Below, piece after piece: positions 1,553 through 63,149 of a stretch of DNA of 64,000 nt. The stretch is from a virus (Duplodnaviria; Caudoviricetes), in IMG/VR virus record IMGVR_UViG_3300033069_001465; one strand, given 5' to 3'. Every line of letters begins with the position of its first letter. The stretch's first letter is position 1. Both the position numbers and the translations under genes were made by a program. The notes below the pieces were generated by a model that saw nothing but the letters and a program-made list of their open reading frames with translations, was not told the origin of the DNA and made no database searches.

Positions 1553-1864
1553 ATGAGTTTAAATTTACTATCTGAACTAATAGGGAAAGAAGTCAGTTAT
1601 ATACCGAATGATGACACTGTGGTTATAAATAGATGGAATAAAAATTATACTACGATTGATAAAGAAGGAACTGATGAATTAATCAGAGTATTTATCTTGA
1701 CTTTAGATAGTGGATGCATTGAGACCAATGAAGAAAATTATGTATTAGACTACGAATATATCTCCAAAAACAAAAAAAAGATACTTGATGATATAGATAT
1801 GTCAAAGGTAAGCTTGCTATTATCACAACTAAGAGATATTAAATTGAGAAAAATATTATCTTAA
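1553..1864 (+). CDS. Hypothetical protein with C-terminal RDIKLRKIL tag
   Basis: 103-aa ORF. Confidence 0.75.
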   Translation: MSLNLLSELIGKEVSYIPNDDTVVINRWNKNYTTIDKEGTDELIRVFILTLDSGCIETNEENYVLDYEYISKNKKKILDDIDMSKVSLLLSQLRDIKLRKILS

Positions 1865-2784
1865 GAATCTGCGTATTTATCAACCATTATTGAGAAGAGA
1901 CGATAGAACTTTTTAGAAAATACCTTCTTTCTTTTATTTATTTCTAATTCAAAAGATTTTCTATATTTTTGTATTAACACTTTATCTTCTTTAGAATATA
2001 TGTTCATCTTAGTTTTTAGAATGTTTTTTAAGTCAAAATATATCTCTTTAAACATATCAGTATAAGAATATCCTGGTTTAAAATCTTTTTTAGTTATAAG
2101 ATAAAAAAGACGATTAATATCACTTTCTTTTAAATAGTTTGAAAAATTAAACTCTTTACTTACTTTTTCCCCATTAAAATATCCAACCCACCAAGTGTAT
2201 GTCATATCATCACAGGTATTTAAAAATCCTTTAATTACATCTATAATGAAATCTTTTGATACGGATTTGTCATTAGGTGATTGTTTTTTTATATCGATTA
2301 TTTTCTTTAGATAAATATCAAGATCAACATAATATCCATGATATTTCGCCTCAAATTCATCTATATCATAGACATAGAATATTTGTTTTTGAACCTTAAT
2401 TGGATCCTTATCCTTAAGATCCATATTACTAATTAACTTATGTGTTTTGTATATAAAATCATTAAAGTGACTACCCTTATTTTTAATGGCCCTTGATAAA
2501 TGCTTCATTTCATGAAGTAATGTGGAATAATCATTTCTATCTTTAAGTAGAACAGTCATTTCCTTATTATCGTCTGATATAATAAATCTACCTGATGCAG
2601 TTTTATCAAATTTACCTATGATTAATTTAAAAAAGTAATTTCCTGATGTTTCATATAATATGAAACTAAATTCATTTTTATTAGAATGCTTTATCTTCTT
2701 ATAAATTTCTTGTGCTTGTGATTCGATGTCCTTATCAATTCCTAATGCCTCTGTAATAAACTCAGAAAAGTTTCTAATTTTCAT
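1861..2784 (-). CDS. Leader-bearing protein with HExxH (possible zincin metallopeptidase)
   Basis: MKIRNFSEFITE start; LLHEMKH followed by DEFEA. Confidence 0.55.
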   Translation of the reverse strand: MKIRNFSEFITEALGIDKDIESQAQEIYKKIKHSNKNEFSFILYETSGNYFFKLIIGKFDKTASGRFIISDDNKEMTVLLKDRNDYSTLLHEMKHLSRAIKNKGSHFNDFIYKTHKLISNMDLKDKDPIKVQKQIFYVYDIDEFEAKYHGYYVDLDIYLKKIIDIKKQSPNDKSVSKDFIIDVIKGFLNTCDDMTYTWWVGYFNGEKVSKEFNFSNYLKESDINRLFYLITKKDFKPGYSYTDMFKEIYFDLKNILKTKMNIYSKEDKVLIQKYRKSFELEINKRKKVFSKKFYRLFSIMVDKYADS

Positions 2785-2796
2785 ATATGTATATAT

Positions 2797-3066
2797 TTAT
2801 AAAGAATATCCAGGATATGTATTTCTAATCTTATTGAAAATTTCTTCTGCATTCTCACCCATTTCATCAAATCGGTCATCAATTTTACTATCAAATTCTT
2901 TTTCATACCAATCTAATAATTCATTAGCTGCCCAGAAACATTCTGCAGGTGCCTCGCTTCCCCAGCTATAAAATAGTGTTTTTAAGGCTTTGATAAAATC
3001 TTCTTTATATTCACACCCCGTTTCTTTTCCAGAATATCTTTCATTAAACTTATTTAAATGTTTCAT
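2797..3066 (-). CDS. Small leader-bearing hypothetical protein
   Basis: MKHLNKFNE start; TAATATATA (reverse strand) at 3071-3079. Confidence 0.75.
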   Translation of the reverse strand: MKHLNKFNERYSGKETGCEYKEDFIKALKTLFYSWGSEAPAECFWAANELLDWYEKEFDSKIDDRFDEMGENAEEIFNKIRNTYPGYSL

Positions 3067-3090
3067 TAATTATATATTAAGATGTAAATA

Positions 3091-4200
3091 TTAAAAACCT
3101 ATATCTAAAATAGATAAAATCTCTTTTTCAATATCATTTATATAGTATGGTATTCTAAGTAGAAAAATATTATTATCATCACAATATTTTTCTTTTGCTC
3201 TATCTCTGTCCTTCCTTTTGTTAAAATTTTCCTCACCACCAAAATATTCAACTATTTCAAAATGTTGAATTCCATCATATTCTATACAAGTATTGTAATC
3301 TTGTAAATAAAAATCAAATTTTAATTTATTTATATACATACAATCATCAAATATTTTTTGAAATTCGTAATTTATATTATGTTTTTGTAATATAACAGAT
3401 ATTTTTCTTTCACCAATTGTTATATTACACTCCGGACATCCATATCCCATTTTGTGTTCATGTGGAGCTTGTTTAAACAATCCATGATTTGGGCAAATTA
3501 TATTAACCTTTGATTTAGCATTTATATATTCGACATTTGAATAATCATAAAAATTACCATGTATATTTTTTGATGATTTAATAAATTCTTCAGTCGTGAG
3601 TGTATATTTTTTTGAAAATCCTTCAAATCTACATTTTTTACATTCAACATTTGAATATAAATGATTTGAAGCTCTTATATTAAATTCTCCATGTTTTTTA
3701 CAAATGATTGTTACTTTTGAATCAGATCTAGTATACTTTACTTTTGAATAGTCATATTTTTCACCATATTTCATTTTGGCCTTCTCTATAAATAAATTGG
3801 TTCTTTTGTCTATGTCTTCATTGCTTATTTTATAATTTTCACTTTTACACTTTTTACATGAAACACCATTTAAATGTGCAATTGATGATATATAGAAATT
3901 ACCATGCTTTTTACAGGTTATTTTTATTTTAGATGTGTTATTTTTATAATTACTAATATCATATGTATATTCATTACCATATTTTTCTAAAAATTTTGAT
4001 AAAATGATTGATTTGTTTGATCGATTTTCATAGGCGCATTTTCTACATATTCCACCCTTAAGTAATACGTCACTTCTTATACTAATTACTCCATGCTTTT
4101 TGCAAATTATATCTACATATGATTTACTTTTCACCTTATCAGGCAAAAGAGAATAATCATACTCTTTAGTTAATCTATTAATAAAATTTATTTTATCCAT
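3091..4200 (-). CDS. Putative homing endonuclease: Zn-ribbon repeats plus Vsr/DUF559-like nuclease domain
   Basis: Four C-x2-HG...C-x2-C repeats; C-terminal FDFYL...IEYDGIQH...LLRIPY. Confidence 0.75.
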   Translation of the reverse strand: MDKINFINRLTKEYDYSLLPDKVKSKSYVDIICKKHGVISIRSDVLLKGGICRKCAYENRSNKSIILSKFLEKYGNEYTYDISNYKNNTSKIKITCKKHGNFYISSIAHLNGVSCKKCKSENYKISNEDIDKRTNLFIEKAKMKYGEKYDYSKVKYTRSDSKVTIICKKHGEFNIRASNHLYSNVECKKCRFEGFSKKYTLTTEEFIKSSKNIHGNFYDYSNVEYINAKSKVNIICPNHGLFKQAPHEHKMGYGCPECNITIGERKISVILQKHNINYEFQKIFDDCMYINKLKFDFYLQDYNTCIEYDGIQHFEIVEYFGGEENFNKRKDRDRAKEKYCDDNNIFLLRIPYYINDIEKEILSILDIGF

Positions 4201-4265
4201 TTAACTATATATATTAAAAAACTAAATCTAATTTTTAATATATATAATTAAAATAAACTATATAA

Positions 4266-5387: not shown

Positions 5388-5927
5388 TTAATTATAATAG
5401 TATCCTTCAGCACCATGTGGCATTCCAGGCATTCTAATATTTAGATTTGTTCCCCTTTCAATAATATCACAAATAAAGTTGAGTAGTCCATCAATTTGAT
5501 CACATTTGTAAAATGTTATTGGTGTAGTCCTATCTGGTATATAATAGCTATATTTAACATAGAACCATCCATCCTCATTTTGGGTAATATTCATATCTAC
5601 ATCAAAGAATACATATTTGTTATCTATAATTCCTTTCTTTTTATATTTTAGAATAATAGTATCAAATATATCAGAATTATCATAATCTCCATCATTTAAG
5701 TCATCATAGTTTAGTAATTTACCATGTCTATCCATAACTACATTTATACATTTTGTTTCACTATCTTCTATAAAGTCTGTATTTTTATAATCATTAAGTA
5801 TTTCTGATATTCTACTAGTATATTTCTTTGAGAAGTCCTGTAGACTTTTATAACTTTCCTTATATTCATTATAATCTATCTCTGTATATAATTTAGAGTG
5901 ATCTTCAAATAATTTTAAGTATTTCAT
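5388..5927 (-). CDS. Leader-bearing KCDQ-family protein
   Basis: MKYLKLFE; DGWFYV...FYKCDQIDGL. Confidence 0.75.
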   Translation of the reverse strand: MKYLKLFEDHSKLYTEIDYNEYKESYKSLQDFSKKYTSRISEILNDYKNTDFIEDSETKCINVVMDRHGKLLNYDDLNDGDYDNSDIFDTIILKYKKKGIIDNKYVFFDVDMNITQNEDGWFYVKYSYYIPDRTTPITFYKCDQIDGLLNFICDIIERGTNLNIRMPGMPHGAEGYYYN

Positions 5928-5928
5928 A

Positions 5929-9238: not shown

Positions 9239-9239
9239 A

Positions 9240-9842: not shown

Positions 9843-9853
9843 AATGTATATAT

Positions 9854-10038: not shown

Positions 10039-10070
10039 ATAAGAGTATATATTAGAATATTAGTTTTCTT

Positions 10071-10106
10071 AAAGTAGAAAAAGTAGAAAAAGTAGAAAAA
10101 GTAGAA
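10071..10106. repeat. Tandem repeat, 4 x AAAGTAGAA
   Basis: Four perfect 9-bp units between divergent promoter motifs. Confidence 0.9.
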
Positions 10107-10142
10107 AATAAATTTTAATATATAGATAAAATAATATTAAAT

Positions 10143-11863: not shown

Positions 11864-12556
11864 TTAATTTTTATACTTCCATATAAATCCATAAGCTTGC
11901 TTATATACTCCATTACAAACTTGTTTAATTGTCTTTCTGTCGAAATTTAGTTCCCTCTTAATTCTTGATACAGAGTCCCACTCTTTTATGAAGTTACCAT
12001 TCATATCAAATTGATATAATGGCCTTTTAATTTTGTTTTTTATAGTACTTAGTTTTTCTATAATTTCTATATTAGAAAATGATTTTTTAACAGCATTTGA
12101 CATTTTTTCCTTAGATTCATTCGTATGTTTTTTATCATAAAATGGATTTTTGTCACCAGTAAACATATCTCTTAGTTTTTTCTTAGTCTCCTCTTTTAAA
12201 CATTTACCAATTCTACTTTTTGATATTTTTTCCTTTACAGAATCTAATAAAGCTGGATTAGAATCTCCACCTGCTGTTATATTAGTAATATTACCAATTT
12301 CCCTATATTTTTTAATATACTCAACCTCTAATAAGAGAGACTCTTCATATGTTAGATTATCAACCAAGATTTCTATTATTGGCTTACAATTATCATTTGT
12401 TAGTTTATTTATCCAATTTGCTTTATGTGTATTTTGACTTTTGGAAGAATTGATATGTTGAGTAAGTCTATACCTCAAAGGTTTACATGTTATACCAATA
12501 TATCTTATTTCTAAGGTATATGGACATCTTAGACAATAAAGCTTGTTATTTCTCAT
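11864..12556 (-). CDS. GIY-YIG homing endonuclease with NUMOD3/NUMOD1-like DNA-binding repeats
   Basis: LYCL...RYIGIT...R..QH; NPFYDKKHTNESKEKMS; YQFDMNGNFIKEWDS. Confidence 0.85.
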   Translation of the reverse strand: MRNNKLYCLRCPYTLEIRYIGITCKPLRYRLTQHINSSKSQNTHKANWINKLTNDNCKPIIEILVDNLTYEESLLLEVEYIKKYREIGNITNITAGGDSNPALLDSVKEKISKSRIGKCLKEETKKKLRDMFTGDKNPFYDKKHTNESKEKMSNAVKKSFSNIEIIEKLSTIKNKIKRPLYQFDMNGNFIKEWDSVSRIKRELNFDRKTIKQVCNGVYKQAYGFIWKYKN

Positions 12557-35261: not shown

Positions 35262-36059
35262 TTACTCACCTGTTTTACAAGATTTTGATATTTTTGATCT
35301 ATTTAATGTACTATCGAATCTTTCTATTTCTCTCAAGCTGTTCCACTCTTTTATATAATTCATACTATCATCATATTGAATTATTTTATTTCTTCTAATT
35401 TTTGTTCCTTTTATTTTATTTCTAATTTTTTCTTTTTGCTCCTCTGTTCTAGGCTTTGTATTTCCTATATTTTTTGGGTTATTTATATGTGATAATCTTA
35501 ACTTCTCATTGTAATCTGCTGTCATTTTTTTTCCATATGCCCAGTGGTTATTCTTATCTTTAAAATACTCCTTTAGTGTATTACTTATTTTATCTTTTAC
35601 TAATGGATCATTCGATCTATTTGGATTATTATCACTCATCCTTTCTGAGTAATATTTTCGTAATTTTATAGACTTCTTTTTTCCAACAATTTCTTCTAAT
35701 TTTTTTCCTTTTTTTGCTAATGACATTTTTGATTTAGTTATAATAGAGAATTCTGTCACATCCTCAGATTTTGAATTCGTTAATTTGTACCCTTCTTTTT
35801 GATATTTTTCAATATAATATCTTTCCATAATATTAGATTCAATTAATGAATTACATTCTTCTACTATTTTTACAATAGGTATTTGGCCATTCCTTATAAC
35901 CCTCCTTATCCAACAAGACTTATGTGTTCGGTATGAATAAGAATTTTTATTTGTAGATGTGCTTATATGATCTTTTAATCTCCTTTCTATATTAGAAGAC
36001 TGACCAACATATCTAATATTGTTATCAAAGGGGTCTATTAGTATGTATATATACCTCAT
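35262..36059 (-). CDS. GIY-YIG homing endonuclease
   Basis: YIYILID...RYVGQS...RRLKDH; NUMOD-like C-terminus. Confidence 0.85.
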   Translation of the reverse strand: MRYIYILIDPFDNNIRYVGQSSNIERRLKDHISTSTNKNSYSYRTHKSCWIRRVIRNGQIPIVKIVEECNSLIESNIMERYYIEKYQKEGYKLTNSKSEDVTEFSIITKSKMSLAKKGKKLEEIVGKKKSIKLRKYYSERMSDNNPNRSNDPLVKDKISNTLKEYFKDKNNHWAYGKKMTADYNEKLRLSHINNPKNIGNTKPRTEEQKEKIRNKIKGTKIRRNKIIQYDDSMNYIKEWNSLREIERFDSTLNRSKISKSCKTGE

Positions 36060-36178: not shown

Positions 36179-38044
36179 ATGAGTAAAAAAGAATATGTTA
36201 TAGGTGTGGACCTTGGAACCACAAACAGTTGTGTCTCTGTTGTTGAAGGCGGTGAGCCAGTAATTATTCCAAATAACGAAGGTAAAAGAACAACTCCTTC
36301 TGTAGTTGGATTTACTGATGCTGATAGAAAAGTTGGTGATCCGGCTAAGCGTCAAGCAGTTACAAATCCAAGTAAAACCGTTTATTCAATTAAAAGGTTT
36401 ATTGGTAAGAATTATAAGGATGTTGGTTCAGAAATGAAAAGAGTTCCTTATAAGGTTAAAAGTAATAGCAACAACGTCCCTGTTGTTGAAATTGGAGATA
36501 GAGACTATACTCCACAAGAAGTATCAGCTATGATACTTCAGAAAATGAAAAAAACCGCTGAAGATTTCTTGGGACAAGAAGTTACAAAGGCTGTAATTAC
36601 TGTTCCCGCCTATTTTGGTGATGCTGAAAGAACTGCTACAATGGAAGCTGGTAAAATTGCTGGTCTTCAAGTAGAAAGAATTATTAACGAACCTACTGCT
36701 GCTGCGTTGGCCTATGGTTTAGACAAAAAAGAAAAAGAACAAAAAATTATTGTATTTGACTTAGGTGGTGGTACATTTGATATTTCTGTTCTCGAAATTG
36801 GTGATGGTGTATTTGAAGTTAAATCTACTGATGGTGATACCCACCTTGGTGGTGATGACTTTGATAACCAAATTATCACTTGGATGATTGATGAGTTTAA
36901 ATCTGATCAATCTATGGATCTTTCAAAGGATCCAATGGCTCTACAAAGATTAAAAGAGGCTGCTGAGAAGGCTAAGATTGAATTATCTTCAACTACTCAA
37001 ACTGAAATTAACCTTCCTTATATTACGGCAAGAGATGGTGCTCCCTTACACTTTGTTAAGACACTAACTAGGGCTAAATTTGAGCAAATGATTAGCAAGT
37101 ATATTGATAAAACAATTGCTTGTTGCAAATCAGCCCTTAAAGGTGCAAAATTAAAAATAACTGATATTGATGAAGTTATCCTTGTTGGTGGTTCTACAAG
37201 AATCCCGGCAGTTCAAGAAGCAGTTGAAAAATTCTTCAATAAGAAGCCTAATAAATCAGTTAATCCTGATGAAGTAGTTGCTATTGGAGCTGCGATTCAA
37301 GGAGCTGTGTTAAGTGGTGAAATTACAGATGTTCTTCTTTTAGATGTAACACCTTTATCACTTGGTATTGAAACAATGGGTGGTGTGTTTACAAAATTAA
37401 TTGAAGCTAACACAACTATTCCTACAAGAAAGTCCGAAACATTTTCTACGGCTTCTGATAATCAACCAAGTGTTGAAATTCATATCTTACAGGGTGAAAG
37501 ACCAATGGCTAGAGATAACCGCTCTTTAGGTAGATTTCATTTGGATGGTATCATGCCTTCTCCAAGAGGTGTTCCTCAAATTGAGGTTACATTAGATATT
37601 GACTCTAATGGTGTTCTTTCAGTTCACGCAAAAGATAAAGCAACTGGTAAAGAAAATAAAATCAGAATCGAAGGTGGATCACAACTTACTAAAGATGAGA
37701 TTGAAAAAATGAAACAGGAAGCTGAAGCACATGCCGAAGAAGATCGTAAAGAAAAAGAAGCAGTTGATAAGGTTAATCAGGCAGATTCTATGATTTTTCA
37801 AACCGAAAAACAAATCAAAGAATTTTCTGATAAACTAACTGAAGAAAATAAAACTCAACTTAATGAATCACTTGATAAGTTAAAAGAAGCTCATAAAATG
37901 AGGGATCTTATTAAGATTGATGAAAGTATGAGTAATCTTAATGAAACCTGGAATAAAATAAGTACTAATTTGTACCAAAATACAAATCCAGATGATACAG
38001 TAGAAACTCAAACAGAGGATACTCCTTTTGAAGAAGTTAAATAA
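36179..38044 (+). CDS. dnaK: Molecular chaperone DnaK (Hsp70)
   Basis: [39 protein letters not shown]; ends FEEVK. Confidence 0.97.
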
Positions 38045-43330: not shown

Positions 43331-43591
43331 ATGGAATCATTAAAAGTGACCGCAATTAAAGAATATCTATCCAAGATAGACTTTAAGAATGACGATTGGT
43401 CAATTCACAAAATCACACAAGATATGCAAAAGTTCTTAGGAGAAACACCAGCTGTTGATATACTCTATAAAAAAGATGTTATGGTAACTGAAATTTCAGG
43501 CGAGTCAAGAGAAATTAAAAAACTTAATAAAGTAAGTATTGTTTTTACAGATACCGATGATAAGATCAAAAAATTAGAAATATTAATATGA
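43331..43591 (+). CDS. Hypothetical protein
   Basis: 86-aa ORF in operon. Confidence 0.7.
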   Translation: MESLKVTAIKEYLSKIDFKNDDWSIHKITQDMQKFLGETPAVDILYKKDVMVTEISGESREIKKLNKVSIVFTDTDDKIKKLEILI

Positions 43592-43809
43592 AATTTGGTG
43601 ACTACTATTTGGATATGGATTTGGTATTTAAACTTGATAAAGACCAAGCTAACTTAATAGTTGAATTCTATAATAGAATGATGGATATATACCCACATGA
43701 TATACAATCTTCTACTTCCTTTTTTAATACACTTATTAAAAGTGGATATTTAAAAAATAAAAATGCAGAAGAAAGGGATGAAAAATTAGGCGATTTAATA
43801 AATGGATAA
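43588..43809 (+). CDS. Small protein with C-terminal RDEKLGDLI tag
   Basis: 73 aa; overlaps both neighbours. Confidence 0.7.
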   Translation: MKFGDYYLDMDLVFKLDKDQANLIVEFYNRMMDIYPHDIQSSTSFFNTLIKSGYLKNKNAEERDEKLGDLING

Positions 43810-44490: not shown

Positions 44491-45951
44491 TTAATTGTCT
44501 TCCTCATTTTCAATTGGATTTCTAAAAAACATTTCAGGATCCATTTTCTTAATCCAGTTTCTTGCTAACAATAATCTTTTTGTAGAGTCTTTTATCCAAG
44601 ATTTTATTAATTCATATTTATCTAATCTATTAAGTAGTGTTTCATAGCTTTCAATATTAACATATCTATCAGCTATTTCTTCTTTAGTTAATTTTTTTAA
44701 ATCATCTGCTTTAACTAGCTCCATAACAATAGCAAAATCTTTATGTCTTGAATACTTAATGGCAAAATCTCTCTTACTTCTATTCATCTTCACAAACTCT
44801 GCATATAATTTATCTACATCATGTGATTTTTCAGCAATTGCCTTCTTAACTATATCTACCAACTTATAGATTCTATCACGAGCTTCTTTTTCATCTTCTG
44901 GAATTTGTCCAAGAATGTCATCAATCTTATCATCAAGAATATATCCTAAGATAATATTCTCTTTGTATAAGTCTTCAGTTAATAATCCATGTCTTTCACA
45001 ATACCAAGGTGTCTTTAACTTAAAGAAAAAGTCTTTACCATTTTCATCAACTGCTTGGACAACATATCCTTCTTTATCAACTTCTGTTCCAGTTAGTTCA
45101 ATTAAACTATCTAAGTCAACGAAATCATCTTTAAATGGAGCAATTTTAATTGATCCTAGCTTGTCTACATGATTTTTAATGTCTATGTGTTTACCAGTCT
45201 TATTATCTCTTAATCTTAATAAAATTAACTCCTCTTTTGAATATTTCAATACAACACGATTATGTGGAGCAACATATTCAAAAATTGGAACAATATCATT
45301 TTCCATGCACCAATCAACAAATTGATTAACATCTGAATTTTCATTATAGATATTTGATATGCCTTTAGCCTGCTCACTTTCAAAAGACATTTTTGATTTA
45401 CCGTATACTTTACCATTAGGTAATTGAATAAATGATGCAATTGAACCATCCTCTTTATTATTAACGAATCTTATTTTATAGTTTTTAACTATAGAATACA
45501 TGGATTCTGGAACTTGATTTAAGTTAAAGAATTTCTCAAGTAGAATAAATCTTTTATATAATGATCCATCAGTATTGAATACGAATGTCAATCCTCTCAT
45601 TTCATAAGCGGTGATATTTGGTTTTCCCTCAACTGGGGTAACAAAGTCTTTATATTGAGCTAGACGATAATTGAATAAACTAACTGAATATCCATCTAAT
45701 GTTAATTTTGTTTCATAGAAAGGAGATTCTTCATCAGCACACATTTCAACACAATCTTCATAAGAAGGAATATATTTTCCTTGAGGTACAGGTCCCACGT
45801 TAATAGTTGCATTTTCAAAATACTTTCGAGCAGCCTCTGTCTTACGAGGAAATAAATCTCGACCCTTTAACTTTTCAGCCACTGATTCTAATAATTCCTT
45901 TTCGGATTTAAAATCACCATATTTTAATATTTTCTTATTCATAAATTTCAA
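44491..45951 (-). CDS. RNA ligase, T4 Rnl1-like
   Basis: EMRGLTF, KFFNLNQ, motif I KEDGS, FEY, EGYV, KLK. Confidence 0.85.
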   Translation of the reverse strand: MKFMNKKILKYGDFKSEKELLESVAEKLKGRDLFPRKTEAARKYFENATINVGPVPQGKYIPSYEDCVEMCADEESPFYETKLTLDGYSVSLFNYRLAQYKDFVTPVEGKPNITAYEMRGLTFVFNTDGSLYKRFILLEKFFNLNQVPESMYSIVKNYKIRFVNNKEDGSIASFIQLPNGKVYGKSKMSFESEQAKGISNIYNENSDVNQFVDWCMENDIVPIFEYVAPHNRVVLKYSKEELILLRLRDNKTGKHIDIKNHVDKLGSIKIAPFKDDFVDLDSLIELTGTEVDKEGYVVQAVDENGKDFFFKLKTPWYCERHGLLTEDLYKENIILGYILDDKIDDILGQIPEDEKEARDRIYKLVDIVKKAIAEKSHDVDKLYAEFVKMNRSKRDFAIKYSRHKDFAIVMELVKADDLKKLTKEEIADRYVNIESYETLLNRLDKYELIKSWIKDSTKRLLLARNWIKKMDPEMFFRNPIENEEDN

Positions 45952-46563: not shown

Positions 46564-46929
46564 TTATTGGACGCTATCAATTTTAGATTTAACCCATTTT
46601 GATTTTTCCCTATAATAATATACCTTTCTTTCTAAAGAGTCGATAATTTTCTCATAACTTGACTTATCAATTAATAACTGGCTATTGGTAAGATCTTTAG
46701 TAGTATTGTCCTTTTTTAATTGCATTATCTCCTTTTGAAAGTATTTTACAGTGTCTTCCACAGACATTCTTTTAATGGAGTCTATACTAAGATAATCATT
46801 TGATTTAATTTTACTAACTACATTTTTATTACTATACTTATAAAAAGCATATGTCAAAAAACAAATAGCGAATAGGGAAGATGCGATAAGAACTATTACT
46901 GCAGTTGATATGGTTGTTTTCTTTTTCAT
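46564..46929 (-). CDS. Membrane-anchored coiled-coil protein
   Basis: N-terminal hydrophobic segment then heptad-like region. Confidence 0.65.
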   Translation of the reverse strand: MKKKTTISTAVIVLIASSLFAICFLTYAFYKYSNKNVVSKIKSNDYLSIDSIKRMSVEDTVKYFQKEIMQLKKDNTTKDLTNSQLLIDKSSYEKIIDSLERKVYYYREKSKWVKSKIDSVQ

Positions 46930-47339
46930 TCTAAGAGTTTATCTAAATTAGATTTTCTATTGATTTGACTATCTCCGCCTAGTTTCTTTCTCACTTGGTC
47001 AATTGGAAATTTATAACTTGCCCCAGTAGATAATTCGGTTGTTATAACTGGATATTTTCTATTTGCTGTTTTAAACCCAACTATTCTATGAATAGTTAGT
47101 TTCCCATTTCTAGAGTTTTCAAATTCCATTCCAACAATATTCTGAGTAAATCCATAACTTAATGACATTCTTTTATTTCTGGCATTAAGTTCTTGTAATT
47201 TACCAATCTCAACTCCACTCACATCAATTTTAAACCCAAATTCACTATTCTTAGAAAGGCTAACATCAACCTTAATATCATATCCTTTTAAAGCATCTTG
47301 AATTTTACTAACAATTTCGTCTATTATTTTAATATCCAT
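46926..47339 (-). CDS. Hypothetical protein with C-terminal RKSNLDKLL tag
   Basis: 137 aa; TATATTTGT (reverse strand) at 47356-47364. Confidence 0.75.
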   Translation of the reverse strand: MDIKIIDEIVSKIQDALKGYDIKVDVSLSKNSEFGFKIDVSGVEIGKLQELNARNKRMSLSYGFTQNIVGMEFENSRNGKLTIHRIVGFKTANRKYPVITTELSTGASYKFPIDQVRKKLGGDSQINRKSNLDKLLE

Positions 47340-47375
47340 ATTGATATGTATTTATACAAATATACTAAAAAACTA

Positions 47376-49267: not shown

Positions 49268-49741
49268 TTAGTTTAGTAGTTTATCTAATTGTAACTCTCT
49301 TCTTTTCATTTTTAATTTATTATAATACACATTATCGAAAAAGAATGCATTTTCCCTAATTTCTTCGAAATATGCCTTGCCATCAGTTGGTATATGATTG
49401 ATATGCTCAATTGGTAGTATATATTTTAGTTTATATATCATACCCTCATTTAATATTCTTTCAACAAAATCATGATCTATTTTAGCAAGATGATCAAAAT
49501 CATCTTCATGTAGAATAGGATCTTTTTCATTTCTGTTAATAAAGTAGGCAAACATTTCATTATCTATAAAGATATAGTCCTCCCATATAAATGGACGGTA
49601 CGTATTATTAAGCCACAATACATCCATAGCATATACATACTTTATAAACGTATCAATATCTTCACAACATTCTCTATGTTTAATAGTAATTAATCTAAAT
49701 AGAGCATATAGTTTATTCCGTAATGATTCTTCACTAAGCAT
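49268..49741 (-). CDS. Hypothetical protein with C-terminal RELQLDKLL tag
   Basis: 157-aa ORF. Confidence 0.7.
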   Translation of the reverse strand: MLSEESLRNKLYALFRLITIKHRECCEDIDTFIKYVYAMDVLWLNNTYRPFIWEDYIFIDNEMFAYFINRNEKDPILHEDDFDHLAKIDHDFVERILNEGMIYKLKYILPIEHINHIPTDGKAYFEEIRENAFFFDNVYYNKLKMKRRELQLDKLLN

Positions 49742-50853: not shown

Positions 50854-50898
50854 TTTAAATTTAATATATACAAATATACAAAATTATATATTAAAAAA

Positions 50899-51639
50899 AT
50901 GAAAGGATTTATTTATGGTTTAATTTGTCCAATTAGAAATGAGATTAGATACATCGGATTAACTAAAAAGACACCAGAAAAAAGACTATCCCAACACTTA
51001 ATGGAATCTAAATACTACAAAAGGAAAGGAAAATACCTTAACAAAAAGCATAACTGGTTAAATAAACTTATAGAAATGAATATAGAGAAGGAAATTAAAG
51101 TAGTTGTATTAGAGGAAATTGAATATGGAAATAATATTGATATTTTATCCGAAAGAGAGATTTATTGGATATCAGTGTATAAAAATCTATCTAACTCGAC
51201 AGATGGTGGAGAAGGAGTATTGAACTTAAGTGAAGATGCTAGAAAAAGAATATCAATTACAAATTCAGGTGAAAAAAATGGTATGTATGGAAAAAGAATT
51301 AAAAGAACCAAAGAGCAAAAGAAAAAATTAAGCCTATCATTAAAAAATTCAAATAAGCTTAAAGAATCTAGATCATCAAATGAATACCGAAAAAAGATAT
51401 CTAATTACCGTTCAAAACCTGTCTTCTTGTTAAATGATAAGTTGGAAATTGTAATGGAGTTTAAAAATTCAACAATATGTGCTGATTACTTTGGATTTAC
51501 AAGGGGAAATATTAAAAATGCAATTAGTTCACTAAGGAAGGTGGGAAAATCTATGAAAAATAAATATTGGGTCATTAGAAAAGAAAACTATGAGGAGTCT
51601 ATTAATAAAATAAGAGAAAAAATAAATCTTTATAACTAA
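50899..51639 (+). CDS. GIY-YIG homing endonuclease
   Basis: FIYGL...RYIGLT...RLSQH; N.TDGGEG; NGMYGK. Confidence 0.85.
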   Translation: MKGFIYGLICPIRNEIRYIGLTKKTPEKRLSQHLMESKYYKRKGKYLNKKHNWLNKLIEMNIEKEIKVVVLEEIEYGNNIDILSEREIYWISVYKNLSNSTDGGEGVLNLSEDARKRISITNSGEKNGMYGKRIKRTKEQKKKLSLSLKNSNKLKESRSSNEYRKKISNYRSKPVFLLNDKLEIVMEFKNSTICADYFGFTRGNIKNAISSLRKVGKSMKNKYWVIRKENYEESINKIREKINLYN

Positions 51640-54966: not shown

Positions 54967-55632
54967 TTACTTTCTTTTAGAAATAATTTCATCAATCATA
55001 CCATATCTTTTTGCTTCAGTAGCATTCATCCAATAATCTCTGTCTCCATCTTGAGAAACCTTATCATATGCTTGACCTGTCATTTCAGAAATGATTTCAT
55101 ATAAGTCTTTTTTAAGATTGTTTATTTGTCTAGCATCAATCTCGATATCAGATGCTTGTGCAAATCCAGTGTAACCTAATGGCTGATGTATCATTGTTCT
55201 TGATCTTTTTAAAGCCTTTCTTTTGCCTTTTGTTCCACTACATAATATAAGTGCTGCCATAGAAGCCGCTAATCCTGTGTTAATTGTAATTATATCCGGC
55301 TTAACAAACTCAATTGTATCTAGTAACCCTAGTCCCGAATAAACAGATCCTCCGGGTGAATCAATGTATATTTTAATATCATCATCTCCTATCTGTTCTA
55401 AATAGAGTAGTTGTGCTTTTATTAAATTACAAACGTCTGACTCCATTTCGGTAGATAAAAATATGATTCGACTTTCTACCAGTTTAGAATAAACATCTAC
55501 TATAACTCCATTTATGTTATCATCTATTATATGGTGAGTATTGTTTTGATAGTTATAATAGTCGTCTACTACAAGGCTATTTATTCTATGATGTTTGGTG
55601 AGGTAATTTCTAAAATCTTTTTGATTGTTCAT
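54967..55632 (-). CDS. clpP: ATP-dependent Clp protease proteolytic subunit
   Basis: YIDSPGGSV, AASMAA (Ser), MIHQP (His), DRDYWM (Asp). Confidence 0.95.
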   Translation of the reverse strand: MNNQKDFRNYLTKHHRINSLVVDDYYNYQNNTHHIIDDNINGVIVDVYSKLVESRIIFLSTEMESDVCNLIKAQLLYLEQIGDDDIKIYIDSPGGSVYSGLGLLDTIEFVKPDIITINTGLAASMAALILCSGTKGKRKALKRSRTMIHQPLGYTGFAQASDIEIDARQINNLKKDLYEIISEMTGQAYDKVSQDGDRDYWMNATEAKRYGMIDEIISKRK

Positions 55633-56056: not shown

Positions 56057-56063
56057 TTATTAA

Positions 56064-57140: not shown

Positions 57141-57143
57141 GAG

Positions 57144-57425: not shown

Positions 57426-57437
57426 ATTTGATTAAAT

Positions 57438-57467
57438 AAAAAACCCTTCCAATCAGAAGGGTTTTTT
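57438..57467. terminator. Bidirectional intrinsic terminator
   Basis: AAAAAACCCTTC-CAATCA-GAAGGGTTTTTT between convergent genes. Confidence 0.85.
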
Positions 57468-57469
57468 AT

Positions 57470-59419
57470 TTATAATATTCTATATTTGTTTGTCGCTAAA
57501 TCTTTTTTAAGTTCATTAAGTAATCCTGCACATTCAGGGCAAAGTTCTTTATCACTTCCTTTAGGTCTATCTCCGGTACCATTACAAACATCACATTTAA
57601 CTTTACCGCCTTTACAAGTTTTACATTTGCCAAGTTTTCCACTCCCTTTACAATCTTTACACTCTCCCTTGCTTCCACTTCCATTACAATCTTTACACTC
57701 TATACTACCCCAATTACATTTTGTACATCTTTTAGTACCTTGTCCTTTACATGTCCTACATTCAATTTGCCCGGGGTCGTCTTCATCTTTACAAGTTTTA
57801 CAAAGTATTACTCCTTCTCCATCACATTGTTTACACGGTACCTCAAGTCTATTAGTCCATGTTCTATTCCATCCTATTACAGAACATGATTTACAACGAC
57901 ATCCTTCTTTCCCAATTTCGCCGCTTGTTGTTTTTCTTGCCCCACCACAATCAGGACACTTAACTCTTCTAGTTCCTTTACCCCATTTTCTTACTATTTC
58001 ACCAACACCTTTACATCCAGTACAAGTAATTGGCTCTCCTTTACAATCAGCACAAGTAACATATGAGTGGCCATCACACGCCTTACATTCACCCATATCA
58101 CCTTCACCATGACAGGTATTACATTCTTTGTGTCCATTCCCATCACAATCAGCACAATTTATATCTCCCTCCCCGTTACAGTCTGTACAATTAACATCTC
58201 CATCTCCATCACAAGTAATACATTTTATATCTCCGCCTCCATCACACTTTGTGCATATTATATTACCACCACCTCGACATATTGTACAGACCACCTCACC
58301 ATCTCCATCACATTTTTTACATTCCGTCCCATCATCATCATCATATCCTGTTCCATCACAATTGCTACAAGGTTCATGATCTCCTTCTGTATCACACATA
58401 ATAAATCCTTCATCAGCATCATCGTCATCATCATCAATAGTAAACCCAACATTACTTATCATTGAATCACCATCTGAAAAAGATAGTGTATCTACAAATG
58501 GGTATTTACTAAAATGTAATCTATGAAGTTTAACTATTAATTTACCAAAAATTATTTGATCTCCATATTTAAATATTAATCCTAATCTTTCATCTGAAGT
58601 CATTTTTTGTTTATAAATCCATCCTTTTTCTTTAGCATAATTTATAAATTTAATAACATCAGAATCATTAGCAGTGTATACTCTATCCATAAAATATTCT
58701 GATTCACACTCAAATTTAGTTTGATCAGGTGTTTTATATAATTCTTTTTTGAAAATTTTCCATACAAGAGCTCTTCCCAATACTTTACCTTGTTCATCAA
58801 GATAAACTAATAATTGGCAAGCTTCTGGATTCTTTGTGTAAATTTTAAAGTATCTCTGACAATCATTACCTCTCATACAAGATCCACCCAATGATCCAGT
58901 ATTTTTCGAATAGTTGCTATATAAATAATATTTCTTAATTAGTGATCCACTAACTAATTCAAATTTTTTAGATGTGTCTACTTTTGATGATTTATAGATA
59001 TTAACGAAGTTTTCAATATCCTTATCACTAACTGTTTTACCTAACTCAGTTAGAATTGCTCTTGCAAATCTACCAACTTTAACTTCATTTCTACTTTTAG
59101 ACGTAAATATTAACTCTGGATCACCGCCCGCATGCATTATCTTATTAGCTCCCCTATCTGCCATAAAGCTAACGGTATCCTCTTTATCTGTTATATCAAC
59201 CCAGTTTTGTGGTAGATCCTTATCAATAAATGTTTTATCGGAAAATGCTTTTAAAAGGTCAATAGCGATATGATTATTATTTATACCTGATAATCGGGTA
59301 AGAAACTTATCAGATGCCATTAAATTTCCTTCAAGTAATAATTTAGCAATTTTACTTTCTAATAAGAAATTGTCAAATTTTAATATACTCTCATGAGTAT
59401 GATTGGTATTTTTACACAT
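57470..59419 (-). CDS. Protein with globular N-domain and about 22 DnaJ-type CxxCxGxG zinc-finger repeats
   Basis: Repeats from CSNCDGTG to CPECAG; no HPD J-domain; ILKFDNFLLES near N-terminus. Confidence 0.75.
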   Translation of the reverse strand: MCKNTNHTHESILKFDNFLLESKIAKLLLEGNLMASDKFLTRLSGINNNHIAIDLLKAFSDKTFIDKDLPQNWVDITDKEDTVSFMADRGANKIMHAGGDPELIFTSKSRNEVKVGRFARAILTELGKTVSDKDIENFVNIYKSSKVDTSKKFELVSGSLIKKYYLYSNYSKNTGSLGGSCMRGNDCQRYFKIYTKNPEACQLLVYLDEQGKVLGRALVWKIFKKELYKTPDQTKFECESEYFMDRVYTANDSDVIKFINYAKEKGWIYKQKMTSDERLGLIFKYGDQIIFGKLIVKLHRLHFSKYPFVDTLSFSDGDSMISNVGFTIDDDDDDADEGFIMCDTEGDHEPCSNCDGTGYDDDDGTECKKCDGDGEVVCTICRGGGNIICTKCDGGGDIKCITCDGDGDVNCTDCNGEGDINCADCDGNGHKECNTCHGEGDMGECKACDGHSYVTCADCKGEPITCTGCKGVGEIVRKWGKGTRRVKCPDCGGARKTTSGEIGKEGCRCKSCSVIGWNRTWTNRLEVPCKQCDGEGVILCKTCKDEDDPGQIECRTCKGQGTKRCTKCNWGSIECKDCNGSGSKGECKDCKGSGKLGKCKTCKGGKVKCDVCNGTGDRPKGSDKELCPECAGLLNELKKDLATNKYRIL

Positions 59420-59456
59420 ATAATTATATATATTAAAAATACCATCGAAAAAAAAA

Positions 59457-59813
59457 TTATTTTAAAATTTCTTTTAACTTATTATCTCTATCTACATCAG
59501 TTGGTGGAGATAGCCAATAAATATTTTTATTTTCTGTCCATACTGGAAAATATTTACTTTCTAAAATTCGTCTTCTACTGTAATCTGACTTATTAAATGG
59601 TGTAGTTATAACTTTTATTTTTGATAATAACTTATCACAATAAACCTCCTTTACTTCAATAATTACATTATAGTTTCCATAATTTCCGTTATTTGGTGTT
59701 ATTACGGTAATTGCTGGTTTTGTTGATGTATCATAGCCTACTTTTAGAAAAAGAAGTCCAATTCTTTTATCTTTAATATTATCGACAAATCCACTTCGTC
59801 TAAATAAACTCAT
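59457..59813 (-). CDS. Hypothetical protein with C-terminal RDNKLKEIL tag
   Basis: 118-aa ORF. Confidence 0.75.
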   Translation of the reverse strand: MSLFRRSGFVDNIKDKRIGLLFLKVGYDTSTKPAITVITPNNGNYGNYNVIIEVKEVYCDKLLSKIKVITTPFNKSDYSRRRILESKYFPVWTENKNIYWLSPPTDVDRDNKLKEILK

Positions 59814-60121
59814 TTTAAAATAATTTTAATTTTTTCATCCCTTTCATCTTCTAATGTAACTATTTTATATATAGAGTTTCTTGTTTTAAATGTTCTATCA
59901 TCAATTATTTCTTTAACCTCAGTAGTAAATATAGGAAATACTGGAGCAGGTGAACTATTAATATCTTCTGGTGAACATGTATATATAACAAAACTTTTTC
60001 CTACAACAGGCCATTCAAAAAAATATCCATTAAGGATATCACCTTTTTTAACTTGTAGTACTTTACCTTCTTGAAATGATTCAATTTTAATAGCCTTGGC
60101 TATTACTCTTTGATCCGACAT
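59810..60121 (-). CDS. Hypothetical protein with C-terminal RDEKIKIIL tag
   Basis: 103 aa; T..V..I.....FKTRNSIY. Confidence 0.75.
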   Translation of the reverse strand: MSDQRVIAKAIKIESFQEGKVLQVKKGDILNGYFFEWPVVGKSFVIYTCSPEDINSSPAPVFPIFTTEVKEIIDDRTFKTRNSIYKIVTLEDERDEKIKIILK

Positions 60122-61017
60122 ATTTGGTTATTATTATATTTTTCTAAAAAGTCTACAACGTAGTTATCATTAACAAACTCTTTTATTTTAAAGAAATAAT
60201 CGGTTGCAAATTGTCGAAACCATCCAGAACATAAGTTAGTGCATATCCTCATTAATGCCCATTCTAATGCTTCGTTTGATGAAACCCAACTTGCTTTCCC
60301 AAAGATACCAGGTAACACTTTTCTTTCAAGTGCAATGACATAGGCTTCTTCTAATACACATTTACATTTGTTTTCAAATGAAAATCTATTCCACATATCT
60401 TTTTCACATTTAGCAATAGTTATATCCCTCTGCATATTTAAATACAGTGGTTTATCATAATGTGCAACTGCTTTATGAATATCATCGTGAATGAAATAAG
60501 ATTTAACAAACCCCTTTGATTGTCCGAAAAATTCAGTAATTGGTTTATTTAAAGATGGCGTTTTTAACTTACCAAGCCTTTCTTCGGTTTCTTTATAACG
60601 TAGTTTAGTAATATTATCTAAATAATCTCCTCCTAATTTTTCATTTAAAAAGGTATAGTCAACAATATGCTTATTAAATTTAATAGGGAAATGTATATGA
60701 CTTTTCTTTAGAGAAAGTAAAACCTCTAAGGAAGCCCATTTTAATCCACGATCACTAGAATCAAAATCAAGGTATAACCGGAGTGAGCTGGACTCATCTG
60801 CAATTAGAACCTCTACATTTTCAGTATCGTAGAATGCTGACTTATTTTGAATTCCAATTAGTGAGGTGATACCATCTCCTTCCTTAATTTTTGATGGGTT
60901 TAATGTGCTAATCAAATATTGTAAATCAGATTTATATCCGATTAAATCAATATCCTTAACCTTCCTATTTAAAGATGGATAATGGTATGTAAGTGCTTTT
61001 GATCCAATAATTAACAT
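60103..61017 (-). CDS. Phage nucleotidyltransferase-like protein
   Basis: IIGSKAL...KDIDL (GS...DxD) at N-terminus; HDDIH. Confidence 0.55.
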   Translation of the reverse strand: MLIIGSKALTYHYPSLNRKVKDIDLIGYKSDLQYLISTLNPSKIKEGDGITSLIGIQNKSAFYDTENVEVLIADESSSLRLYLDFDSSDRGLKWASLEVLLSLKKSHIHFPIKFNKHIVDYTFLNEKLGGDYLDNITKLRYKETEERLGKLKTPSLNKPITEFFGQSKGFVKSYFIHDDIHKAVAHYDKPLYLNMQRDITIAKCEKDMWNRFSFENKCKCVLEEAYVIALERKVLPGIFGKASWVSSNEALEWALMRICTNLCSGWFRQFATDYFFKIKEFVNDNYVVDFLEKYNNNQICRIKE

Positions 61018-61028
61018 AATATTATTTT

Positions 61029-61292
61029 TTAATCATAAGATGATTCTTCACCATCCTCATAAGAAGACTCATATGAATCATAGGATTGTTCCTCATATGA
61101 CATTTCATCATCATAATTTAGAAGATTATCAATATTGAGAATTTTATCAGATACATCAACATCCAAATTTGACTTCGCAGCTTCTTCTAATAACTGTGAT
61201 AATTGAAATTGAGCATCACTGTGTGAAATGCTTTTTTCCCGGCACATTTCTAATATACGGGATAGTTTTTTGTAGAAATCTACTATATTCAT
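61029..61292 (-). CDS. Small protein with acidic Ser/Tyr tail
   Basis: 87 aa; SYEEQSYDSYESSYE. Confidence 0.65.
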   Translation of the reverse strand: MNIVDFYKKLSRILEMCREKSISHSDAQFQLSQLLEEAAKSNLDVDVSDKILNIDNLLNYDDEMSYEEQSYDSYESSYEDGEESSYD

Positions 61293-61298
61293 ATTTAT

Positions 61299-61544
61299 TT
61301 ATTTTAAAATATCATCAATTATATGTTTTCTAAAATCTCCTTTGCTTATGAATCGACTATAATGATATGCTTGCCCGACTTTTATATCATTTATGACACA
61401 TATCCAAAAATTTTCATCACCTGAATATACTTCAAGTGAATCAATTATATACTCTTTACCAACCGTTAAACTAGAACGATTATTTAAAATACAAATAACC
61501 TTTTCTCCTACGACAAATCCCTTATGTTCTTTTATTTCACCCAT
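61299..61544 (-). CDS. Small SH3-like protein with C-terminal RKHIIDDIL tag
   Basis: GEKVICI...LTVGKEY; TATATTTGT upstream at 61551-61559. Confidence 0.7.
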   Translation of the reverse strand: MGEIKEHKGFVVGEKVICILNNRSSLTVGKEYIIDSLEVYSGDENFWICVINDIKVGQAYHYSRFISKGDFRKHIIDDILK

Positions 61545-61619
61545 ATAAACACAAATATAATAACTTTTTGTAAAATTACAAAATCAAACTTACAATAATA
61601 TATTCACTATATGAATTAG

Positions 61620-62774
61620 ATGGATAAAGTTTATATAAAAAATATAATTCGAAATATTTTAAACAATGAGTTTAAATCTGCCGAAAGGAGAAAGATACAT
61701 GAATATCATGATCGTATTAATTTCTGTTGTTTTTATTGTGGTGATGGTAAAAGTGATCATAAAAAAAGAGGTAATTTATACTTCAATAAGTTAGTGTATG
61801 TATGTTTTAACTGTGGTAAGAAAACAAACTTTGACCGAGTTGCCAAAGACTATCATCAACAATTAGATCCTGATAAGAAAATGGAAATAATAAAGCATTT
61901 AGAAAATGCTGTTTCTTATAAAGACTATGAAGATGACATAATGGAAACATCTTTGGATAAGATGTTGAACATAAAAGAAATAGAAGATATATTTACAAGT
62001 GGTGATTATGCAATAACAGATTTCCAACCAATACAAAAAAATAGTATCATTTTTAACTATTTAGTTGGTAGGGGAATATCACCACAATATCATAGGGATA
62101 TTTACGAAGCAAAATATTGGTATAATTCAGATAGGTATGAACCAATTATGTGCTTCCTAAACCGAAGAGGTGATAAGGTTCTCGGAGCTCAGGTTAGGAA
62201 TATTAAAGAGGGCAAACGAAGAATGTTTAAAATCTACAACTATGAAACACTATATAAGTGGATTCATAATGTTGAGGAAATTATAGATATAGATATTAAT
62301 CAACTTGTTATTTATAATAAATTAAGTTATTATTTTAATATTCTGAATGTTGACTTTGGACATATGATAACTATTTTTGAGGGGTATCTTGATTCACTTT
62401 TTTATCCAAATAGCATTGGGGTTGTGGGTGTTAATACAGATTTTAAATTCTTGGAAAACAATAACTTAGAGATACAATTTTTTCTTGATAATGATAGTGC
62501 GGGATATGAACAATCTGAAAAGAAATTAAGAGAAGGATATCCGGTATTTCTATGGAAGAAATTGTTTGAAGATATTGTAAAGAAGAAAGGATCTGAGGAT
62601 CCCTATAAACTAATGCATAGAATAAGTAAGATTAAAGATTTGAACAAACTTTCAGAATTAGCAAACGATCCTTATAGAAAGCTGCATTTAGATCAATATT
62701 TTAGTAAGGATGAAATGGATATGAAATATATCCCTAAGAAAGAAAAAAAATATTATAAGAAATTAACTAAGTAA
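61620..62774 (+). CDS. DNA primase (T4 gp61-like)
   Basis: Zn finger CFYCGD...CFNCG; TOPRIM FEGYLDS...DND; KDLN. Confidence 0.85.
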   Translation: MDKVYIKNIIRNILNNEFKSAERRKIHEYHDRINFCCFYCGDGKSDHKKRGNLYFNKLVYVCFNCGKKTNFDRVAKDYHQQLDPDKKMEIIKHLENAVSYKDYEDDIMETSLDKMLNIKEIEDIFTSGDYAITDFQPIQKNSIIFNYLVGRGISPQYHRDIYEAKYWYNSDRYEPIMCFLNRRGDKVLGAQVRNIKEGKRRMFKIYNYETLYKWIHNVEEIIDIDINQLVIYNKLSYYFNILNVDFGHMITIFEGYLDSLFYPNSIGVVGVNTDFKFLENNNLEIQFFLDNDSAGYEQSEKKLREGYPVFLWKKLFEDIVKKKGSEDPYKLMHRISKIKDLNKLSELANDPYRKLHLDQYFSKDEMDMKYIPKKEKKYYKKLTK

Positions 62775-63149
62775 TTCGTTTATTTTTCTGTCACGATAGT
62801 AGTTTTTATATAAATTCTCAGAGGTCCTCTCATAGTAATCACAACCGATTATTACCTCTGACTCTCCTTTTTGTATTGAATTATATGACTTTAAATAACA
62901 TCCATATAACATTAAGTTATATGATTCAACGTGTATCTTCTTTTTATACATATTTGAATATCCTTGCTTATCAAATTGAGTTGAGAACCAATCTGATGCC
63001 CACACGAAACTATCATCACTTACAATCATTGTAACTTCAACACTGTTTCTCTCAAAAGCTAGATATCCACTATTGGTAAGTAACGATACATTAATAGTGT
63101 GAGATACTATAATTTTATCTTCACTAAAATCGTATATTAATTCCTTCAT
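62763..63149 (-). CDS. Hypothetical protein with C-terminal RDRKINELL tag
   Basis: 128-aa ORF. Confidence 0.7.
   Translation of the reverse strand: MKELIYDFSEDKIIVSHTINVSLLTNSGYLAFERNSVEVTMIVSDDSFVWASDWFSTQFDKQGYSNMYKKKIHVESYNLMLYGCYLKSYNSIQKGESEVIIGCDYYERTSENLYKNYYRDRKINELLS

Follow-up and report, generated by a model that had tools for sequence, protein, structure and literature searches.

A stretch of 64,000 nucleotides of viral DNA (Duplodnaviria; Caudoviricetes; IMG/VR record IMGVR_UViG_3300033069_001465), referred to here as the window, raises the question of why eight small proteins whose bodies give no significant pairwise match should end in nearly the same short peptide. An earlier note described this peptide as a C-terminal tag, and all eight of the open reading frames (ORFs) and C-termini that it quoted translate as given, each ending in R-[DEK]-x-x-[LI]-x-x-[LI]-[LI] plus one or two residues. 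The tag is a defined motif that is restricted to C-termini, selected at the level of the peptide, carried as a module by unrelated proteins, biased in its promoters, exclusive of an N-terminal leader found on other proteins of the same phages, and found in one clade among the genomes compared. The reading favoured here, at a probability of roughly 0.55, is that the tail is a portable helix by which the tagged proteins dock, through their C-termini, on one common reader.

A C-terminal motif on unrelated proteins

The window has a G+C content of 27%, and its 79 genes, which were taken from a greedy ORF picker of our own rather than a trained gene finder, make it 96.5% coding under the standard code. 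This coding density under code 11, together with the TAA and TGA stops, rules out the possibility that an alternative genetic code has produced false C-termini; the eight tagged genes end in six TAA and two TGA codons, both of the latter forming an ATGA overlap with the start of the next gene. A loose form of the motif, R-x3-[LI]-x2-[LI]-[LI], has nine matches in the 20,594 amino acids of these genes, in eight of which only one or two residues separate the motif from the stop. The remaining match is the C-terminal helix of ClpP, a feature typical of its family, which fits the loose pattern but receives only 0.3 bits from the scoring matrix described below, and was treated as a coincidence.

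This matrix of 14 columns was trained only on the tails of LR756502.1, the 642,428-bp genome of an uncultured phage that is the nearest public relative of the window (62% protein identity on an AAA protein); it is circular for that genome itself and independent for the others. In the window, the matrix gave the eight tagged C-termini 11.3-24.9 bits and the next-best C-terminus 4.3 bits, by which the list of eight in the earlier note is complete. Scores above 8 bits were reached at one of 18,856 internal positions and in one of 162 discarded overlapping ORFs (8.4 bits). An internal tag-like peptide of 13.5 bits, with Leu replacing Arg, lies at residues ~336-345 of an Rnl1-type RNA ligase (44491-45942, minus strand), directly after the ligase domain, and may be a relic of a former C-terminus that predates the fusion of a further domain.

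The comparison extended to LR756502.1, which was scanned in its entirety, and to IMG/VR sequences that comprise a near-identical 185-kb contig, which stood in for the complete genome of the window, and two further relatives (464 and 270 kb). A genome-wide comparison of C-termini with background, which the earlier note had proposed as a check, revealed strong enrichment in LR756502.1, the near-identical contig and the 464-kb relative. In LR756502.1, the tag lies no more than 6 residues from the end in 105 of ~1005 proteins, which account for 105 of the 174 pattern matches in that genome, with 17 others at 7-17 residues and 52 at 20 residues or more from the end, the last figure being close to our own rough chance estimate of ~46 from residue frequencies. 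When Arg was not presupposed, it was still found four residues before the first hydrophobic position in 89 of the 137 proteins of this genome that end in [LI]xx[LI][LIV], against a background frequency of 3.7%. By the matrix, tagged genes number 31 of 263 in the near-identical contig, with 0.35 expected from internal positions, and 42 of 550 in the 464-kb relative, with 0.25 expected; the discarded overlapping ORFs of these two sequences were almost never marked.

Two complete outgroup phages (217 and 169 kb), which share a DUF7275 gene, have neither the tag nor the leader, and the literature offered nothing relevant on such a C-terminal tag in huge or jumbo phages. As judged from the genomes compared, the tag is confined to one clade of huge phages, and is uniform within it. 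The logo from LR756502.1 reads h (hydrophobic, at position -1), R, D/N/E, x, K, I/L, N/D/S, x, I/L, L/I, and is followed by 0-6 residues, most often exactly one, which are mostly K, N, D, G, S or E. Upstream of the core there is K or a hydrophobic residue at -4, preceded by an acidic or Ser-rich stretch. The tagged proteins of LR756502.1 range from 40 to 622 residues, and their genes cluster in long arrays of small genes, such as the one at 620-640 kb, where 19 of the 56 genes that start there are tagged.

None of the eight window proteins has a Pfam match above the cut-off or a PHROG match, with only sub-threshold noise being recovered, and a search of the ESM Atlas with one of the tails yielded no informative match. 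Two lie on the plus strand, these being an orphan of 103 residues (1553..1864; tag 1832-1861; 24.9 bits), which has a distant tagged homologue in LR756502.1, and one of 73 residues (43588..43809; tag 43774-43806; 11.3 bits), the weakest member, with two residues after the motif. The other six are on the minus strand. They include an orphan of 137 residues (46926..47339; tag 46929-46958; 13.6 bits), with a tagged homologue in LR756502.1, and orphans of 157 (49268..49741; tag 49271-49300; 17.5 bits), 118 (59457..59813; tag 59460-59489; 21.6 bits) and 128 residues (62763..63149; tag 62766-62795; 24.1 bits), the last of which has no recognisable promoter. The remaining two were modelled, and are a protein of 103 residues with an all-beta body and a C-terminal helix (59810..60121; tag 59813-59842; 18.4 bits) and one of 81 residues with a barrel resembling SH3/KOW domains and a C-terminal helix (61299..61544; tag 61302-61331; 16.0 bits).

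An element acting at the level of the DNA at gene ends was considered and ruled out. The Arg, Leu and Ile codons of the tag vary among the eight window genes, and the DNA 3' of the tagged stops is unrelated, in some cases overlapping the next start and in others being convergent with a neighbour, and it is therefore the peptide that is under selection. The unrelatedness of the bodies extends to LR756502.1, in which BLAST sorts the 105 tagged proteins into 103 clusters, as many as it finds among untagged proteins drawn at random. This bears out the earlier description of a C-terminus-specific motif on small unrelated proteins. Among the ten largest tagged proteins of the relatives, one is a riboflavin kinase, and the others are orphans.

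The tag is conserved within families as well as shared between them. In the 61299 family (15 homologues), the tag Arg is invariant, two of the hydrophobic positions are conserved at 93%, and the last one at 87%. In the 59810 family, 33 of 48 close homologues were aligned, and the tag is kept in all 32 non-chimeric rows (one row being chimeric). Conservation in the two families is 0.76 for the tag core and 0.58-0.63 for the body. AlphaFold2 (AF2) models the 61299 protein as an SH3/KOW-like barrel with a predicted local distance difference test (pLDDT) score of ~90 and a terminal helix (residues 68-80) at pLDDT 46-55, and the 59810 protein as a beta domain of six to seven strands with a terminal helix (residues 90-102) at pLDDT 56-60. 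The low confidence of these helices suggests that their position on the body is not fixed.

The 59810 model gave weak matches to PH/EVH1-like domains, a fold whose sandwich is capped by a C-terminal helix, and this likeness raised the question of whether the helix is an integral part of the domain. Searching 1.8 billion representatives with a profile recovered 314 distant relatives of this protein. Among the best 149 of these, 111 end a few residues past the last strand, without the helix, and 38 are tagged, 35 of which fall in one clade of the body tree, where the tag label changes 9 times, compared with 33 in shuffles. One untagged member of the family is found in a replication module of ordinary small-phage type, in which no gene is tagged. 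The 59810 protein itself had no tblastn match in GenBank phages. Given that most relatives are free of the helix and that nearly all of the tagged ones fall in one clade, the helix of this family is an add-on, joined in this lineage to an older domain.

Two protein classes and their promoters

The earlier note had presented the tag as mutually exclusive with an N-terminal leader, and this exclusivity is confirmed in three genomes. In LR756502.1, 128 of 1005 proteins start with a leader of the type MK[YH]LKx[FY]xE, and none of them carries the C-terminal tag, where 13.4 overlaps would be expected (P 2.6e-7). There were likewise no overlaps in either the near-identical contig or the 464-kb relative, against 3.5 expected in each. 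None of the eight tagged window proteins starts with an MKYLKLFE-type leader, which is carried by ~27 other proteins of the window (45-57425; for example, those at 45, 5388, 6383, 7471, 7761 and 8096).

The two labels also differ in their promoter context, with the leader pattern and the promoter classes being set by simple rules of our own. A promoter-like element, TAATATATA, lies 8-30 nt 5' of many start codons, and heads structural genes, such as that of a collagen-like fibre. It is probably a late promoter, and resembles the TATAAATA of T4. In LR756502.1, 113 of the 128 leader genes lie behind this element (odds ratio 10.9), whereas the genes with the C-terminal tag are depleted there (20 of 105; odds ratio 0.23). 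Many of the tagged units begin instead with a clean TTTG-N19-20-TAnnTTTG promoter.

The promoter consensus of the Bacteroidota consists of TTTG at -33 and TAnnTTTG at -7 (PMC7366714). The presence of promoter-like elements of this type points to a bacterium of the phylum Bacteroidota as the host of this uncultured huge phage. In the window, four -7 elements of this type, TATATTTG, head the units that hold six of the eight tagged genes, as the earlier note had reported. The first (1541-1548, plus strand) lies ahead of the 1553 gene, and the second (47357-47364, minus strand) ahead of the gene that starts at 47339, with a TTTG ~20 nt upstream. The third (50871-50878, minus strand) heads the unit that runs from 50853 to 49268, in which the tagged 49268 gene is the last, and which holds a gene with the N-terminal leader together with the gene with the C-terminal tag. 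The fourth (61552-61559, minus strand), with a TTTG 19 nt upstream, heads the unit from 61544 to 59457, which contains three tagged genes. The 43588 gene belongs to a unit with a TAATATATA-type element. In LR756502.1, units defined by the -7 element alone hold 30 of the 105 tagged genes, compared with 161 of all 1005 genes, which is a modest enrichment. The leader and the tag thus mark two non-overlapping classes of protein, one of them late-like by its promoter-like motifs; that the tagged class is early is plausible.

A proposed docking helix and its possible reader

When the conserved residues are placed on a helical wheel, K3, I7, R0, L4, L8, D1 and N5 fall on one side, and the variable residues on the opposite one. 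Here R0, L4, I7 and L8 form a hydrophobic stripe, which is flanked by K3 on one side and by D1/N5 on the other. This one-sidedness is the reason for reading the tail as a docking helix, rather than as a degron threaded into a pore or a membrane anchor. On this reading, the tail would act as a portable address label at the C-terminus. It would be a helix of ~10-14 residues with the form h-R-[DNE]-x-K-[LI]-[NDS]-x-[IL]-[LI], joined by a short polar or acidic linker to many unrelated bodies. Through this helix, about one tenth of the proteome, consisting of small accessory proteins whose genes lie outside late-type units, would plug into a groove of one common reader. Given that the tag is confined to the clade and uniform within it, this reader is probably encoded by the phage.

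The first candidate for the reader may be found in the proteostasis kit of the clade, that is, a ClpC-like unfoldase without the usual N-domain, ClpP and DnaK, and its engagement with the tag could result either in the timed clearance of non-late proteins or in the adaptor-type delivery of their targets. The presence of ClpP and DnaK, on which the earlier note had drawn in proposing a degron, was verified by Pfam matches in the window, with ClpP at 54967-55632 and an Hsp70/DnaK protein at 36179-38044 (plus strand). The Clp machine is placed first among the candidates because its components co-occur with the tag. ClpP is present in all four of the tag-bearing genomes, with three copies in LR756502.1, and is absent from one of the outgroup phages, while the other has only a weak partial match. 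The ClpC-like unfoldase, of 707 residues, lacks the N-domain, which in ClpC is used by adaptors, and retains the ClpC-type UVR motif and a VGF loop of the type by which other Clp unfoldases dock ClpP. Its sequence identity exceeds 82% across hundreds of metagenome proteins, and some of these are encoded on contigs of up to 481 kb.

In the 464-kb relative (G003; IMG/VR, 464,605 bp), the ClpC-like gene is broken at the second Walker A motif, and its two parts lie 48 kb from each other, at 169694-171184 (plus strand) and 120909-122081 (minus strand). The N-terminal part continues past G-K with ~32 residues that start with Cys, and the C-terminal part opens with ~125 extra residues that end in H-N before a Thr, whereas an intact copy of the gene is found at L030:238-2361:+. 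The split gene looks like a natural split intein with a short N-fragment, as far as its sequence can tell.

A number of points weigh against a docking helix with a common reader. No sequence evidence was found to tie the tag to Clp or DnaK, and the co-occurrence of the tag and the Clp kit is drawn from a few related genomes, which do not represent independent evidence. The helix itself is a prediction, at pLDDT 46-60. The spacing between the motif and the C-terminus varies from 0 to 6 residues, and the free carboxylate is therefore not strictly read, which also speaks against both a classical C-terminal degron and a motif that docks on a protease ring, as those of HslU and HbYX do; the tag encoded by the transfer-messenger RNA (tmRNA) of the phage does end in a classical non-polar degron, unlike the C-terminal tag. 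Expression timing, finally, is judged solely from promoter-like motifs, and when the strict definition of -33 and -7 elements is applied to LR756502.1, 13 of 105 tagged genes qualify, compared with 106 of 900, an enrichment that is not significant. The two-address code tied to expression timing that the earlier note had suggested is thus supported in so far as the labels are split by promoter type, but its early component is modest with the -7 element alone and disappears under the strict definition.

A broader picture, offered tentatively and with the odds rather against it, is that the proteomes of these huge phages are addressed by two labels. The leader, on ~12% of the proteins, behind late-type promoters, would probably direct them to the capsid, and the C-terminal helix, on another 10%, would direct non-late accessory proteins to a dedicated phage reader, with each clade having evolved its own label and reader. 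That reader may be the ClpC-ClpP machine without the N-domain, in which case the tagged proteins would be either early proteins timed out by degradation or a library of adaptors that feeds host proteins to the viral protease.

A more specific version of the docking model, which we consider improbable in this form, has the tag read as a handle by the ClpC-like unfoldase and ClpP of the phage, either as a degron at the late switch or as an adaptor tether, similar to the tail of SspB, that hands over a bound host protein. It draws on the occurrence of ClpP in all four tag-bearing genomes and its multiple copies in LR756502.1, on the very conserved ClpC-like ATPase of the clade, with its VGF loop and without the N-domain used by adaptors, on the presence of a phage tmRNA, on the placement of the tag outside late-type units and never on leader proteins, and on the absence or near absence of ClpP from the tagless outgroups. 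The sample of genomes is, however, small and phylogenetically dependent. The XB tail of SspB-type adaptors tethers them to ClpX, and F-box-like adaptors follow the same logic of a common handle. The tagged proteins may share this logic in their variable bodies, which would bind the targets, and their constant C-terminal handle, in a phage that encodes a degradation machine, although there is no sequence likeness to the XB tail. The ClpX zinc-binding domain (PF06689), the N-domain to which such a tail would bind, had no match in any of the four genomes, where the Clp ATPase present is ClpC-like. In contrast to known Clp degrons, the tag also appears to be a helix, and the polar residues along its rim are conserved. 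In degrons of the ssrA-like/ClpX type, a non-polar ending lies at a fixed distance from the carboxylate, whereas the tag ends in polar residues at a variable distance. The HslU tail and the HbYX motif are strictly terminal, unlike the tag with its variable spacing, and their partner family HslV/20S (PF00227) had no match in the four genomes.

It is also conceivable, albeit clearly unlikely, that the tails associate with one another, pairing or bundling so that the small proteins become oligomeric or enter one mixed assembly. Such an arrangement is compatible with the amphipathic helix, which has hydrophobic residues at -4, -1, +4, +7 and +8, with its self-complementary charges (Arg/Lys beside Asp/Asn), and with the low confidence of the tail in models of the monomers. 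The core, however, spans only about two heptads, the pattern upstream of it has no heptad register, and identical tails on ~100 proteins would mix them indiscriminately. Membrane-targeting helices of the MinD/FtsA type have a broad hydrophobic and often aromatic face without conserved acidic residues, whereas the aliphatic positions of the tag number no more than three or four, and Asp/Asn is conserved at +1 and +5. Transmembrane-like segments occur in the same share of tagged and untagged proteins.

A second signal for capsid loading, in which the tail would bind the interior of the capsid or scaffold so that the tagged proteins are packaged and injected, is very unlikely, despite the head genes of T4 type (such as the portal) and the very large set of leader-bearing proteins in the phage. 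C-terminal helices do bind shells of the HK97 fold in encapsulins, and in the scaffolds of P22 and herpesviruses, which lends the idea some support from established knowledge. The tagged genes nevertheless avoid the TAATATATA element of the structural and leader genes, and no cleavage-site pattern accompanies the tag.

Two known systems come close to such a signal. Encapsulin cargo-loading peptides and the encapsulation peptides of microcompartments are short terminal peptides or amphipathic helices that dock on one shell protein. They resemble the tag as a terminal helix on a flexible linker, appended to unrelated cargo, and differ from it in their consensus and in the number of clients, which are few, whereas the tag has ~100 per genome, these being orphans of non-late units. 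No shell genes were noticed next to the tagged genes, and none of those window proteins that were scanned with Pfam matched a shell family, although no search aimed at the shells of encapsulins or microcompartments was made. In T4, a capsid targeting sequence (CTS) is found on the internal proteins IPI-III and Alt (PMC3012670). The tag and the CTS are alike as short terminal peptides that form the sole common part of diverse small accessory proteins of a phage, with an address role, and the present phage has head and replication genes like those of T4, as well as an N-terminal leader that resembles the CTS. The CTS is, however, N-terminal, expressed alongside the head genes and removed by the prohead protease, whereas the tag lies 0-6 residues from the C-terminus, never occurs on leader proteins, and avoids the late-type promoter, as recognised from motifs only.

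Binding to the sliding clamp, through a C-terminal h-x-x-h-h peptide of the kind found in PCNA/gp45-type motifs, is highly improbable. Like PIP boxes and the clamp-binding tails of T4 gp43 and gp55, the tag has the h-[DN]-x-h-h spacing at the extreme C-terminus, with basic flanks and many clients for one hub. Its C-terminal core ([LI]-[NDS]-x-[IL]-[LI], near the end) does correspond to the h-x-x-h-h of these motifs, and a gp44-like clamp loader is present. The tag, however, contains no aromatic residue, and thus neither the aromatic pair nor the T4 consensus S-L-D-F-L-[FY], and its carriers are orphans and a riboflavin kinase rather than enzymes of replication or repair. Neither gp45 (both domains) nor the beta clamp had a Pfam match in the four genomes. 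A protein of 133 residues that is conserved in the clade (LR756502.1 267443-267844, L006:22443-22844:+; G003 220159-220560) has a T4-type tail similar to LDFLF, in agreement with the gp43 and gp55 tails in the T4 record. The clade thus seems to use the T4 motif, and the clamp probably has this different motif of its own. The 133-residue protein is itself a candidate gp33-like late co-activator. A protein of 121 residues in LR756502.1 (217128-217493), conserved at 79%, has a weak match to T4 gp55. As far as sequence comparison goes, the tag lacks a defining feature of every known family for which one was tested.

The last alternative, that the tag has no function of its own and reflects chance in an AT-rich genome, a gene-end element in the DNA, or a helix inherited in one fast-evolving superfamily, is largely refuted, for although Lys, Ile, Leu, Asn and Asp are common at 27% G+C and a small beta domain precedes the helix in both of the models, internal matches are at chance level and terminal ones more than 100-fold above it, discarded ORFs are almost never tagged, the codons and flanking DNA differ, the helix is missing from the majority of the 59810 body family, and the tagged proteins, of 40-622 residues, include a known enzyme fold.

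Huge phages hold hundreds of orphan genes that cannot be annotated, and the two labels represent a first handle for sorting them, with the tag class comprising about one protein in ten, mostly small orphans outside late-gene units, and the second label marking another eighth. If the tail is a docking helix, the identification of its reader could explain ~100 genes per genome at once, and should the reader be a viral protease or chaperone, this would represent a new means for a virus to schedule or direct the turnover of proteins in bacteria. Being small and portable, the tag could also find use as a handle in engineering, and the exact terminal motif provides a simple marker of the clade and a check on gene ends in metagenomic assemblies.

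Genomic setting of the tagged genes

The genes of the clade include a T4-type portal, a family-B polymerase, a UvsX-like recombinase and the gp44-like clamp loader, together with many tRNAs and, in two of the relatives, a tmRNA. Proteins of unknown function that are highly conserved in the clade are encoded in LR756502.1 at 142953-143918, 180251-180868, 215521-216804, 217128-217493 and 466406-467014. The DnaK is the most conserved protein of the window. A gene that adjoins the tagged operon (57470-59419, minus strand) encodes a protein of 649 residues with a weak match, below the cut-off, to the DnaJ-type CxxCxGxG zinc-finger repeat and no match to the J-domain, and this protein may form an unusual chaperone pair with the phage DnaK.

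The order of the genes in the near-identical 185-kb contig (G002) differs from that of the window. In this contig, the counterparts of the 49268 and 43588 genes lie at 178717 and 183719, respectively, and the block that corresponds to 59457-63149 is found far off, at 124932-128624, which reflects either a rearrangement or a difference in assembly.

Homing-endonuclease-like genes are dispersed through the window, at 11864-12556, 35262-36059, 50899-51639 and 63149-63625, and the types recognised by Pfam are a GIY-YIG gene with NUMOD domains, a second GIY-YIG gene and an HNH gene. The assignment of 50899-51639 comes from BLAST only, by a match to the same gene of a relative as the two GIY-YIG genes. 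The scattering of these genes is consistent with the interrupted genes seen in the relatives. Between two divergent genes, at 10039-10142, there are four tandem copies of a 9-nt unit, which reads CTACTTTTT on one strand.

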